From a virus (taxonomy: Duplodnaviria > Heunggongvirae > Uroviricota > Caudoviricetes), in the IMG/VR virus record IMGVR_UViG_2568526681_000003: a stretch of 11,413 bases of DNA. One strand, 5' to 3'. Position numbers: made by a program. The first letter of the stretch is position 1. Every line of letters starts with the position of its first letter. This document shows positions 6,001 through 11,413 of the stretch, piece by piece.

Positions 6001-9000
6001 CGGCAGGCTTTGAGAAAAGCATTCTGTCCGGTTGTCGCTTCCGGCACGGCGTGCTCGCGCGGTTTCAATGCGGCATCGTCTACGCGAACACCGGGAAAAT
6101 CTGGCGGCAGCGGGTCAACATAACGAGCGGGCTTCTTATTCAACCATTGCTCAATCTCGGCGCGTCGGCAATGAATCGCGTCGCCGGGCTGGATGACTTG
6201 CCGCAACCCAGTGTCAGAGCGCTGTTTTTGTTTCTTCGGTTGAACACCGTGCAGCGTTCGCCACTCCCGCAAGGTCATCGCGGAGCCATCTGCATTGTAA
6301 TAAAACTCTTCGGTCTTTGTGTTGTATGCCGCCTTAACGGGTTTACGCTTTACAGGGCATATCTTGGAACGTCGAATAACAATCCCGTCAGCGATCATTT
6401 GCTGTACATCTGCGTTCGCAGTATTGAGCGGGTCAGCGTCGGCAGCTTGCACAAGCAGGCGGCGTAGGTTTGTTGGCATGGTGAAATCTCCAGAAAATAG
6501 GGGTAGGTATTAGCTCAGGTTGGGGCGGTGGTACAGTTGCGGCAGACTCTCTGCCCTTATAGAGGTTTTCATGTCGGCAACAGTGTCAGTGTCTTTATCT
6601 GCCTTAATAGTCACTTTCAAAATCGGAGAGTTTGTCTCGCTTCGGGAGTTATTCTTTCTCCTTAGTAGATACTTTCATTAGGTCAATTTTTAACCACCTC
6701 CTCGCTAAGCCTTACTGAGCCTGGGCTGGCAATACTTAACAACGCGATTTTTGTCGGTCAAAAGCGGGAAAGTAATGCTCTATATCTCCTTATTAGTAGC
6801 CTTTAAAATTAAAAATATAAGTTACTGATATCAATAGATAATTATGAAAGTGACTATAGTGATAAGTATCGCTAGATACGCAGAGCGAGCGCGGCGCAGC
6901 CGAAACAAGCGAGCGCCGAACGGATGACGGATGGCAGACCGTAGGACTGACAGACGGCAGACAGTGAAGACAGTAGGACAGGTGACAGACAGTAGACCGT
7001 GACGGCGTGCCATAGCTGGCAGTAGCACAGCAGGCAGTAAGACCGATGACCAACGGCTAAGACCTGAAAGGAAACGAACAAGGAAGATGATTGAATGCTA
7101 CAGAAATGAATTGAAGATGTTATGAAGAATACCGTACCGATATCAGGATAAGATTGAATACAGAAGTAATACCGATACAGAGTACCGTCCCACTACACAA
7201 CCCCGCCGCGTTGACCGCCCGGCAAGCACGGTTGCGTGGAGGGCCGAGCATCAGCAGCGGACGCAGGCCGATGAATGAGCCGAAGGCGAATGAAAGCGGA
7301 CTAGCGGACGCGAGAAGCGTAGCCAGTGGTGAGCGTGAAGCGATACACTGATTAGGAGATGGGGATGTAGGGGAAGAACCCTTTTTTGTACATGCATATA
7401 AAATGCAGCTTTAAAGCAAGCCAAGCAGCACCAGCCCGCGTCTCGTCTGGCTTTGTAGATGGACAACACAGCCTTTGATCCCTTCCCCTGCCCCATCCCT
7501 CGAATTGTTCAGTGATAAATCACATTCACAATCTGATCTTGATGCTCATCGTCTGGCACGGCTAAAGCCCCGCCACCTCTTCACATCAAGAGCCGCAAGT
7601 GATACGAAATACATTATAAATCATAGCATTAAGACATCACGCATAACATAACCCTCTGAAATAAATACAAAAGCTGTAGGTCATCCATCACCCACAGCCC
7701 AGTAACGGCCAGTCGTAGCACCTCGTTCGCTTGTAGGTCATCATCCCTCGCCCTTGTTCCAGTGGCGTTTAACGGTGCTCACGCTAACGCCGAGACGCTT
7801 CGCTACCTTCGATTGAGACAGCCCCTCACTCCGCAGCTCCTGCACCTTTTGAGTGGTGTCGGTGGCTTCCTTGCGTCCCAGCTTAACGCCATTGGCTTTC
7901 GCCTTCTCCAGCCCGTCCAGCGTCCTCTCACGGATACGGTTTCGCTCGAACTCAGCAAAAGCTCCAAACATCTGGCGGATTAGCTTGCCCTCAGATGAAG
8001 TCAGATCACGCGCTGGCAGGTCAAGCGACACCACCTTCACGCCGCGTTCTAGCAGCATGTCGATGGTCTGCTGTACGTCGATGTTGTCACGCCCCAGCCT
8101 GTCCAGTTTCAGCACGACAAGCTGATCTCCCGCTTCCAGCTTGTGCTCAACCATCGCCCGAAACTTAGGGCGCTGCATAGCCTGAACACTACCGGAAATG
8201 TCCTCGCTGATTACCCGGCTTTCAGGCACCTTGTACCCGGCACGCTCAATAGCCAGCACCTGATTCTGCGTATCCTGCTCGCGTGTTGAAACGCGGCAGT
8301 AGATAAAAGTCCTCATGGTTCACCTCACCCGTCTGGTATCACAAAACGGTAGCATCATTTCATTGGTGGTATCATTAAGTCAAACCCTAAATTAATGACA
8401 CCAGATAGTAATCACTCAGACAGGTAGCAAGAATCGAACGATTGATGACACTAAAGCCAAAACAATAACGACAGCCAAGAGAAGCGCCAAGCATCAACGC
8501 AAAGTGCTTTAACAGTGGAGATTCAGGAGTGATTTAGCGTTTCAAGAGAAGAATAACCCTAACCCACAGCCTCACGGTCAGAACATGAAACAGGGTCATA
8601 AACGCCACAGAGGAAGGCAAATCGATATACAGCCCGCCCAGCCTTCGGCTGGGAGAGGCGCACGGGGGAAGTTGAAGCCTTAACCGTCGAGGGAGGGGCA
8701 ACCATAAACGTGCAATTTTTCAAGCCGGGGATTCAGTTATAGGCTAACGGTAGAATGCGGCTTGATACGGGGAGTGTTCACGCATCTGGTACAAATACCT
8801 AACTTCGTGAGCAACTGCCCCATATAGGCCACATCTGGCAAGTTTTGAGGTTATATAATTTACCATTCACGCTTTTACTTAATTGCAATCGGCGCGGATG
8901 GGATTGCTGTCAAAGAAAGAACCCGCATTTTGAAGTCTTCATACTGTTCCCCCTCACGCAATGAAAGTTCAGTTAAAGAATAGAAACGGTCGGTTGATGG

Positions 9001-11413
9001 CGATTCACTACGAGCTTTTGCCATATCCAACCGAGAAACATTAATCACAGTCCAGCACTCTGTATAACCCCTAGCTCGGGCTTTTTGGTGGCTCTTTTCA
9101 GCTTCGCCAATACGGTTATGGATATTTGAAACATCTGTCCCGCTTTTGACTTCAATAGCTACGACATTGCGGTAATTCTGATGAGCCATTTCTTCCCGAA
9201 TGATTATGTCTGGGTCCGCTGCAAACTCTATGAGAACCGGGCGACCTGTTGCACTGTTCACTTCAATAGCACTTTCTCGAACCTCTGCGGTAGCGTGCGC
9301 AACAATTTCTCGAATAATCTCAAACACTAACACAATTCCATTTGTGCCTCGTTGATTGTTAGCCCCGCCTCTTAATTGCGGCCCCACAGTGAGCAGAGTC
9401 AGGTCATCCAACAATTCACGGCTTACGCGTAACGGCCCAACTCCAGATAAAAGGGCAGAAGCAGCCCCGCAAAAAGCGGCGCATAATTCAGGTATTTTGG
9501 GTTTTGCCAGTTTACCAATAACACCCTTCACTTCCATTGATTTGAAACTACCAACACCAAACCCTTTATCTCTGCCATAAAACTCTTTCTGACTATATCC
9601 CATTAGCAAACGATAATAGCCCAATAGATAAGGGTTTTCTTCTAACACTGCGGGAACAGGGAATAAAAGTTCGGCCCGTAACCCGTATGTGGCTAAGGTT
9701 GCCAGATCCGCCTTGGGAACATATTCACCGAGTTGCGCATCAAGGGCGACAATATCCATATTACGCACGGTTTCTAACAACGCATTTTGAAGATAAACAC
9801 CGCGAAATCTTTTTAAAGCTAAAGCAAAATCGACCTGCTGTTTCGGTTCTGGGAAAGTGATTTTTACAGTCATGCTGCCGCTATCCTTATCACATTAGTT
9901 TTATCACCCTGCAACCGATTAACCGCAATCTCAACATACTCAGGGTTTAACTCAATACCAACATATTGTCGATCTTCATCTTGGCAGACTACCCCCACGG
10001 TACCCGAGCCAAAGAAAGGGTCTAACACAAAATCACCCGGCTCAGTTGAAGCAAGGATACATGGCCGAATTAAATCAGGTGGGAATGTTGCAAAGTGCGC
10101 CCCTGAAAAGGGTTTCGTATTAACATTCCAAACAGTGCGACGGTTTCTTAGCCCACCATTGTCTCTTGGTTCTCTCACAGCCTGCCAATCATAAAAATAT
10201 TTCTCAGATTTTGTCAGCATGAATAAGAACTCATGGGAGCGAGTGGGACGGTCCTTAACGCTTTCAGGCATAGCATTTGGCTTGTTCCATACAATATCAC
10301 TCCGTAAATACCAACCATCGTTTTGTAGTGCAAAAGCAAGCCGCCAAGGGATACCAATAAGATCCTTCGGTTTCAATCCTTCTGGCGTATCTGGCCGAAC
10401 AGTCATAGCACGAGCTGGGTTCTTTTTATCTGGTGCTCTGTAACCGCGATTACCGCTTGTGTAACCATCCCCGATGTTAAGCCAAAGGGTGCCATCATCA
10501 CTTAAAACTCGTTTTACTTCGGCGAAAATGGTCACAAGGCGATTAATGAACTGGTGCATACTACTTTCTAAGCCAATCTGTTCATCAATCCCATAGTCAC
10601 GCAATCCCCAATAAGGTGGAGAAGTAACAACACAACGGACCGAACCACTAGGAAGCCTTCGCAATACTGTTAAAGCATCCCCCTCAAAAAGGGTAGGACC
10701 GTCCAACTCCAAAGGTTCGGCGCGATGAAGCCTCTCAACAGTTGGTGGTAAGCTACTCTTTTTCTGCGGCATAACAATTCCTCTTACACATGATTCTAAC
10801 AAGCATTATGCCCGTAATCGCCGATACAATGTTGGCCGGTAGTGTAAACCGCGATGGGTGAGCCAACAACACACCCATAGAAAGTTTTCATTACCCAACA
10901 ACAGGTACAGCGGAGATATAAATTCAACCAATAGCTAGCCATAAGCGCCGTGTTGGGTATCCAAACAAACTGCGCCGTAGGCGTATCATCAGAAATGTCA
11001 CTCATTCGCTCTCTTATCGAGTACCGTTCGTTTATGGCACGGCGAACACCACGGTAGAGCCTGCCGCTTTCCCGGACAGGTTAGGCTTCCCAACATTTGC
11101 TCGTTTATCCACTGCGTGTCATCACGACAGGCGATTGTGGGACACCGCGCTAAGTGCGGAACAAATGAGTGTGATGGGATTGTTTAGAGACGGTGGCTAC
11201 GTCATAGCTTTCAAGTTGAGTCAGTACGTGTTTGACGCTTGGAACTACACGCCGCTATGAGTTAACATCCCAATTACCACTATCAACCATAGCGGCTTTT
11301 TCAAGGGACATAACAGAGCATTTCTTACAGGCAAAAGAGACAGATTTAATCGTCTAAATAACTGTATTGTAAGGAATTTAGTGACTTGGTGCCGAAGGCC
11401 GGACTCGAACCGG

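Follow-up and report, generated by a model that had tools for sequence, protein, structure and literature searches.

XmaI, Cfr9I, Pac25I and XcyI form one sequence family of restriction endonucleases cutting C^CCGGG (Zheng and Roberts, PMC1920265), and the product of the methyltransferases M.Cfr9I and M.XcyI is C(m4C)CGGG, m4C being N4-methylcytosine (PMC1920265). Cfr9I is listed in REBASE as a 37-kDa enzyme of Type IIE (PMC1474071). The site CCCGGG is shared by SmaI and XveII, for which closely related methyltransferases modify the second C (PMC1920265; PMC5117858), but the nucleases of SmaI and XveII belong to an unrelated sequence family and cut bluntly (CCC^GGG). BsoBI and AvaI (C^YCGRG; PDB 1DC1) recognise a degenerate site that includes CCCGGG and cut it at the same position as XcyI. 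The subject of the present analysis is a pair of genes for a methyltransferase (M) and a restriction endonuclease (R) at positions 8875–10772 of a stretch of DNA of 11,413 nucleotides (IMG/VR virus record IMGVR_UViG_2568526681_000003, filed under Caudoviricetes), which as a whole is called the window in the following. We consider it very probable that the pair is an apparently intact Type IIP restriction-modification (R-M) operon of the XcyI/XmaI/Cfr9I family with specificity for CCCGGG, that it is carried as cargo by a genomic island, and that the loss of CCCGGG from the window is part of a much wider purge that has rid the island backbone of restriction sites.

With XcyI from Xanthomonas campestris pv. 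cyanopsidis the pair has in common a methyltransferase of the same length, an endonuclease in the RE_XcyI family (332 amino acids versus 333 in Xanthomonas homologues), a gene for M placed ahead of that for R on one strand, the two overlapping at their junction, and, as the expected activities, cleavage at C^CCGGG and methylation to C(m4C)CGGG (PMC1920265). Unlike XcyI, it is found in an enterobacterial host and on an island at the leuX gene rather than on a Xanthomonas replicon, and unlike the GC-rich Xanthomonas copies, to which its nucleotide identity is about 72%, it has a GC content of about 45% and a GC content at third codon positions (GC3) of 0.38. With Cfr9I from Citrobacter freundii it shares the enterobacterial host, the family and presumably the site and the m4C product (PMC1920265), and the calculated mass of R (36.6 kDa) is close to the 37 kDa of Cfr9I (PMC1474071). 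By analogy with Cfr9I, R may have Type IIE character. R is not of the SmaI/XveII nuclease family.

Methyltransferase, endonuclease and their junction

The gene for M lies on the minus strand at 9870–10772. Read from ATG 10772 it encodes 300 amino acids (in the mechanical list of open reading frames, ORFs, it starts at TTG 10802 and has 310), and it is the ATG form that aligns with residues 1 to 300 of M.XcyI (Swiss-Prot P30774, found via a cluster look-up), 254 of the 300 residues being identical (85%) and gaps being absent. M is in this sense closely orthologous to an enzyme of the family that has been characterised biochemically. Pfam N6_N4_Mtase matches at 1e-56 (193 bits, 220 of 221 model positions) and the PADLOC model MTase_II at 477 bits, and motif IV (TSPPYW, residues ~50–55) precedes motif I (DPFFGSGT, ~251–258), which is the order of the β-class. 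A serine in SPPY is typical of N4-cytosine enzymes, and the PDB matches of M include the N4-cytosine methyltransferases 8S9M and M.PvuII (1BOO). The product of M is most likely C(m4C)CGGG in both strands; the SPPY motif and the identity to M.XcyI agree with m4C at the second C of CCCGGG.

The gene for R (8875–9873, minus strand) encodes a PD-(D/E)xK type II restriction endonuclease that matches Pfam RE_XcyI (PF09571) over its full length, with an E-value of 4e-112 and 374.8 bits (cutoff 25), residues 20–325 covering model positions 4–305 of 305 (302/305). The PADLOC model REase_II gives 681 bits over 329 of 333 positions, and the RefSeq label of the protein is "XcyI family restriction endonuclease." Homology searches with R and with M gave only unnamed proteins or ones labelled as of the XcyI family. 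The identity of R to Q32XB3 ("probable R.XmaI," Xanthomonas axonopodis pv. glycines) is 84%, and it is likewise 84% for the X. citri and Klebsiella oxytoca plasmid enzymes that fall into one 90% cluster with Q32XB3; the designation "restriction endonuclease Cfr9I" on the K. oxytoca gene is the depositor's annotation only. The M partner of the Xanthomonas plasmid enzymes clusters at 90% with M.XcyI, which shares this cluster with a methylase from an X. citri plasmid. In an alignment of 71 homologues (67–89% identity) P221-D222 and E241-x-K243 occur without exception and H252 almost without, and the catalytic motif is located on an α/β core as in other members of the PD-(D/E)xK superfamily. H252, which follows the E-x-K, is what we take to be the counterpart of His253 of BsoBI. 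The predicted model of R has a BsoBI-like fold, BsoBI being the closest solved fold (14% identity in the structural alignment), followed by NgoMIV, AgeI, PspGI, Bse634I, BsaWI, Cfr10I, SgrAI, PfoI and EcoRII-C, all of which cleave in front of a central CCGG or CCNGG. This predicted neighbourhood is what one expects for a C^CCGGG cutter. Single-sequence (phmmer) and profile searches of R against PDB sequences gave nothing meaningful, BsoBI included, and RE_XcyI was the sole Pfam match; BsoBI and AvaI are relatives at the level of the fold only. R most likely cuts unmethylated C^CCGGG, leaving 5′-CCGG ends. The call of specificity, almost certainly CCCGGG, is drawn from the 84–85% identity of the two proteins to the XcyI lineage and from the modelled fold.

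Both ORFs are of full length and have kept every residue that is invariant in the 71 homologues. Compared with the Cronobacter copy, the codon differences are 44 synonymous and 1 nonsynonymous in M and 23 and 3 in R, and compared with the Enterobacter ludwigii copy they are 136:24 and 156:37, respectively. Because synonymous differences far outnumber nonsynonymous ones, both genes are under purifying selection. An R protein of exactly this sequence is on record for 287 contigs.

M ends with GCA TGA and R begins with ATG ACT, and the stop of the one and the start of the other therefore overlap in ATGA (9870–9873, minus strand, read from the sequence). For comparison, 80 loci from species-representative genomes with homologues of R (52–87% identity), together with Enterobacter and Cronobacter loci, were surveyed. 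M precedes R on the same strand in every locus in which both genes were found, and 58 of the 66 mapped junctions, from loci with an R identity of 52–100%, overlap, 44 by four nucleotides (ATGA or GTGA) and 14 by one (TGATG or TAATG). Since the overlap recurs in so many loci, the coupling geometry is a conserved trait of the family. Translational control of R by M was reportedly described for Cfr9I by Lubys et al. (1994).

The leader upstream of M (10773–10871, minus strand) travels with the cassette: its homology with the copy in an integrative and conjugative element (ICE) of E. ludwigii reaches 10871, and the block is conserved in the multi-copy alignment. It contains a Shine-Dalgarno sequence, AAGAGGAA (10785–10778), seven bases upstream of the start of M, and a candidate promoter element of the extended −10 type, TGTTAGAAT (10801–10793), which was assigned by eye. 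A 69-amino-acid ORF at 10796–11005 was considered as a controller protein and rejected, there being no family match, no helix-turn-helix and no PGAP call.

A reading of the window from sequence only had linked the pair to the Cfr9I/XcyI systems by the sizes and arrangement of the two genes, namely a 300-amino-acid SPPY β-class methyltransferase starting at ATG 10772 and a 332-amino-acid PD-(D/E)xK endonuclease joined by ATGA. Start, sizes, methyltransferase class, nuclease motif (D222, E241 and K243 in the present alignment) and junction were all confirmed, and the family call, which in that reading had no basis in sequence identity, now has one in the RE_XcyI match and in the M.XcyI alignment.

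From characterised relatives we infer how the operon would work. M would protect CCCGGG sites by S-adenosylmethionine-dependent β-class N4-cytosine methylation, and R would cleave unmethylated C^CCGGG via its PD-(D/E)xK site. Owing to the ATGA overlap the translation of R would depend on ribosomes finishing M, so that upon entry of the cassette into a naive cell M would be made first and in excess. The cassette was gained horizontally as cargo, in a slot that has a serine recombinase gene on one side and the attachment end at leuX on the other, and the purge of many enterobacterial type II sites is a pre-existing trait of the backbone.

The cassette as island cargo

The window corresponds over its full length and with 99.9% identity to positions 612663–624076, reverse strand, of the chromosome of Escherichia coli A16 (NZ_CP028758.1), a strain from otter faeces in Mexico. 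It differs from this RefSeq record at few positions, the first at 5260, and by one 1-nucleotide indel, which shifts the coordinates downstream by one. The island of which the window is a part is bounded by perfect 25-nucleotide direct repeats of the 3′ end of tRNA-Leu (leuX), 14.75 kb apart. One repeat lies in the leuX 3′ end that forms the attR of the island and is cut by the window edge (11387–11413, minus strand; A16 RefSeq annotation), and the distal one (A16 locus L001, 8613–8637) adjoins a tyrosine integrase gene. Besides the integrase and the direct repeats of a tRNA 3′ end, the island has conserved arms that enclose a variable cargo.

The cassette is an AT-rich swappable cargo that was acquired separately and horizontally. 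Homology of the window to four cassette-free E. coli islands ends at 8729–8821 and restarts at 11175, and the segment in between (8822–11174) is specific to the cassette-bearing islands. An island of Enterobacter hormaechei is 99.8% identical to the window over 8686–11413, but its backbone is only ~80–83% identical, and an island of Cronobacter sakazakii has the cassette at 95% identity. The cargo has therefore been exchanged between diverged islands. Among 5426 complete E. coli genomes the cassette was found in one, whereas the island backbone or the leuX flank gave matches in 629 (~12%), the fullest of which span most of the backbone at ~92% identity. The slot is filled differently in other strains, in part with other defence genes or candidates for such: E2348/69 has hypothetical genes there, OkiPb01685 has AbiJ-NTD4/PDC-S32 together with an IS3 element, and LR-33 and LD26-1 have DUF3800/PDC-M04A and two small genes.

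All cargo segments of these islands are AT-richer than the backbone. The GC content and GC3 are 0.449 and 0.38 for R and 0.460 and 0.38 for M as compared with 0.554 and 0.57 for the helicase gene of the backbone; the capsid and recombinase genes have a GC content of 0.536 and 0.568, respectively, and the GC3 of the capsid, helicase and recombinase genes is 0.57–0.67. The cassette as a whole (~45% GC versus a comparison value of 54%) is therefore AT-richer than its surroundings, as had been noticed by eye and had been taken to indicate a separate acquisition; both points stand, with the qualification that the low-GC block is wider than the cassette and reaches from ~8200 to the window end.

Related M-R pairs are also found on the E. 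ludwigii ICE-like element, on small mobilisable Salmonella and Klebsiella plasmids, and on Xanthomonas plasmids, and Vibrio SGI1-type islands also carry one (PMC9035990). Across these carriers nucleotide homology is limited to the two genes and ~100 bp upstream of M. Phage records with a homologue of the cassette were not found.

XcyI-family M-R pairs repeatedly adjoin a serine recombinase gene in carriers that are unrelated to each other, namely Xanthomonas plasmids, other small plasmids, SGI1-type islands and the leuX island; the gene order differs (loci L092, 2000–4490; L093, 1547–4487; L097–L099; window, 7741–9873). The possibility that the serine recombinase travels with the cassette was rejected, because in the leuX island it is a backbone gene that is also present in cassette-free islands and is only 29–40% identical to the plasmid recombinases.

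Restriction sites missing from the island

The counts made by eye in the sequence-only reading (47 CCGG, 19 CCCGG, 12 CCGGG and no CCCGGG in the window) are almost exactly those found by script (48, 20, 12 and 0), and the maximal-order Markov expectation for CCCGGG, then put at about 5, is 20 × 12/48 = 5.0 (z = −3.4; Poisson P(0) = 0.007). Of these only 0.5 are expected in the cassette alone. CCCGGG is, however, one of many missing sites. The window has not a single copy of 35 of the 64 hexamer palindromes (70 palindromes observed in total versus 159 expected), CAGCTG and CGGCCG being depleted as strongly as CCCGGG, whereas non-palindromic hexamers occur at expectation (Mann-Whitney p = 3e-15). 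For comparison, in 21 half-overlapping windows of the same size from the E. coli chromosome 12–21 palindromes are absent and the totals are 127–172; CCCGGG is absent from four of them.

The same pattern is seen when the backbones of seven islands from three genera are compared (window 1–8821, L002–L005, L006 6571–15905 and L008 11558–20738; pairwise identity 82–95%). They contain no CCCGGG versus a pooled expectation of 49, and four of the seven are without the cassette; in these four E. coli islands the count is 0 versus 5.5–7.8 expected in each, and in the cassette-bearing Enterobacter and Cronobacter islands 0 versus 7–8.5. The palindrome profile of the seven islands is sharply bimodal. About 26 of the 64 hexamer palindromes have a ratio of observed to expected of ≤0.1, among them sixteen that are absent from all seven, e.g., CTGCAG (0/30), TGGCCA (0/27), CGGCCG (0/23.5), CCGCGG, GTCGAC, CCATGG, TCCGGA and CTCGAG, and about ten further ones such as CAGCTG (1/41), GCGCGC (1/37), GGCGCC (1/29) and GCCGGC (1/21). 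Others are at expectation, for example AGCGCT (50/51), TGCGCA (63/55), GTTAAC, AACGTT and ATCGAT. The avoidance extends to degenerate sites: GGWCC is found 0 times versus 68 expected, CCWGG 9 versus 192, and the non-palindromic forms of RCCGGY 0 versus 34. Because CCCGAG and CTCGGG together are found only once versus 16 expected, besides the missing palindromes, the whole AvaI-type site CYCGRG is avoided, and pressure of the CYCGRG type could equally account for the missing CCCGGG. The one-off neighbours CCCGGA, CCCGGT and CCCGGC are at or above expectation. The cassette is free of such a purge; the window has four GGWCC sites, and each of them falls within the cassette. Restriction-site avoidance is known for phages and plasmids (PMC12707154).

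The absence of CCCGGG is thus real and selected, and reflects an old, general avoidance of restriction sites by the island backbone. It is neither caused by the resident enzyme nor informative on its specificity, the depletion being neither specific for the cognate site nor confined to carriers of the cassette. The sequence-only reading had regarded it as consistent with a resident or frequently encountered specificity of the SmaI/XmaI/Cfr9I type. The resident part of this proposal is not supported, and CCCGGG remains a frequently encountered specificity only as one of many. Nor is the depletion a sign of such a specificity in the host, since the A16 chromosome has CCCGGG at the usual level of E. 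coli (10 in two 50-kb samples, Markov expectation 21); over a homologous 50 kb the count is 8 both in A16 and in K-12 strain MG1655, two sites having been gained in A16.

That a resident XmaI/Cfr9I-type enzyme has selected against its own site in island and host is accordingly improbable. The zero counts in the window and in the two cassette-bearing islands of other genera, and the undepleted one-off neighbours, which make the loss site-specific, would suit this explanation. It is contradicted by the four cassette-free islands, which lack the site to the same extent, by the breadth of the purge and by the K-12-like count of the A16 chromosome; moreover, a resident site that is methylated is protected, and little selection by the resident enzyme is to be expected. 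Still somewhat less probable is a pair of the XcyI family with shifted or relaxed specificity, e.g., for CYCGRG or another site of the form NCCGGN. Few substitutions can change the specificity of a type II enzyme, BsoBI is the closest solved fold to the model of R, and the comparison of R with a characterised nuclease is indirect. Against a shift speak the alignment of M with M.XcyI without indels, the 84% identity of R to Xanthomonas plasmid enzymes whose M partner clusters with M.XcyI, the failure of R to match the BsoBI family at the sequence level, and the fact that C^CCGGG is common to every family member that has been characterised (PMC1920265). Unlikely, too, is an explanation in which the cassette is not a working restriction system in A16, either because R is inactive or silent and M solitary or because the pair mainly serves as an addiction module stabilising the island. 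Type II R-M pairs do act as post-segregational killers, decayed copies of R exist among relatives, and no promoter was called, but addiction and defence can coexist, and full-length ORFs with all invariant residues, strong purifying selection on R and the occurrence of its exact sequence on so many contigs speak against this explanation.

It should be noted that several observations weigh against the reading preferred here, that of an intact, CCCGGG-specific operon carried as cargo by a purged island. The link of R to a biochemically characterised nuclease is indirect, through the cluster of Q32XB3. A consensus promoter and terminator scan upstream of M called nothing, and folding of the RNA around the M/R junction, where a hairpin masking the start of R was sought, gave no significant structure (z = −0.8). 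XveII, with a nonfunctional, decayed R beside an active M, is a precedent within the CCCGGG group (PMC5117858), and in X. phaseoli plasmid pXPP57 (L055, ~9980–11020) the homologue of R is frameshifted and its M partner match is 87.5% identical. The zero counts of the seven islands are not independent, the islands being related. Finally, in the flanks of 62 loci with homologues from other species CCCGGG has a ratio of observed to expected of 0.63 as compared with 0.81 for all palindromes (rank 7 of 64), and since this depletion is modest and not unique, avoidance of the cognate site was rejected as a test of specificity. From the conserved junction and the selection acting on both genes we infer that the operon would be active in vivo.

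The leuX island

From the integrase onwards the island contains genes for a tyrosine integrase, a YafO toxin, an endonuclease VII-like and an HNH protein, a major head protein, a scaffold-like protein, several small ORFs and a RecQ-like helicase, followed by a gap of 1.26 kb, the serine recombinase, R, M and the tRNA. The backbone within the window (1–8821) comprises the capsid, scaffold-like, helicase and recombinase genes. The major head protein belongs to PHROG 267 (2e-67), whereas the match of the scaffold protein is weak, and in profile searches of the island proteins against Pfam and PHROG no terminase, portal or tail gene was recognisable. By its gene content the island looks like a phage satellite. 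As in the leuX hotspot 37 and in the defence cargo of satellites, it has a tyrosine integrase at one end, a tRNA-Leu attachment site at the other and, from strain to strain, different defence genes or candidates in the slot; with its own head and scaffold-like genes but no recognisable terminase, portal or tail genes, it fits none of the named satellite families that were checked. Hotspot 37 at leuX is the most occupied defence island of E. coli (PMC12707154). A description of this leuX island family was not found in literature searches.

The serine recombinase of the resolvase/invertase type (7741–8316, minus strand; Pfam Resolvase 8e-37 and HTH_7), which borders the cargo slot, is encoded in all related islands. 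Its allele is divergent in the LD26-1 and Enterobacter islands even though both flanks align (window 7723–8686 versus L005 and L006), and the gene may have been exchanged along with the cargo or independently of it.

The 614-amino-acid RecQ-like helicase (4635–6479, minus strand) matches the PADLOC model "DpdF" with 916 bits over 504 of 504 positions, but the NCBIfam model DpdF with only 127 bits (cutoff 550), and other dpd genes are absent. Probably a helicase that belongs to the island itself has been captured in a library of defence models. The 1.26-kb stretch between helicase and recombinase (6480–7740) is conserved across the islands, has no ORF call, no Rfam match (nor had any other part of the window) and a strongly positive AT skew, and contains a 17-nucleotide inverted repeat (6607–6623/6841–6857); repeat searches in this gap and at the cargo borders otherwise gave nothing convincing. 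The stretch may act as an origin or as a packaging site, or may give rise to non-coding RNA.

In A16 a second AT-rich block (L001, 3516–8600; GC 0.41) lies beyond the integrase, outside the window and beside attL, with genes for an HNH endonuclease, a "phosphorothioated DNA-binding restriction endonuclease" and a 678-amino-acid hypothetical protein. Because this block of defence genes adjoins attL, leuX of A16 carries stacked defence elements.

As an enzyme system the R-M pair is one more uncharacterised orthologue of a textbook family, and in this respect the stakes are low. The restriction-proof backbone is the more unusual feature. We tentatively suggest, as a possibility rather less than even, that the island represents a kind of phage satellite not described so far, which is proof against restriction across genera and swaps defence cargo beside a serine recombinase via conserved arms. 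If this is true, such a satellite could deploy a nuclease against a site absent from itself and thus without risk to itself; since the island lacks CCCGGG, its own DNA would never be a substrate for the predicted cargo nuclease. A caution follows for other loci: a missing cognate site near an R-M gene is no evidence for specificity when the carrier avoids restriction sites in general. The bimodal palindrome profile, on the other hand, could read out the type II specificities that the island has met in nature. For the family, the same 2-kb M-R unit moves between leuX islands and the ICE-like element, the plasmids and the SGI1-type islands named above, and for the hosts the prediction is that A16, like those strains of Enterobacter and Cronobacter in which the identical cassette is found, would carry m4C at CCCGGG and would restrict incoming DNA that contains this site.

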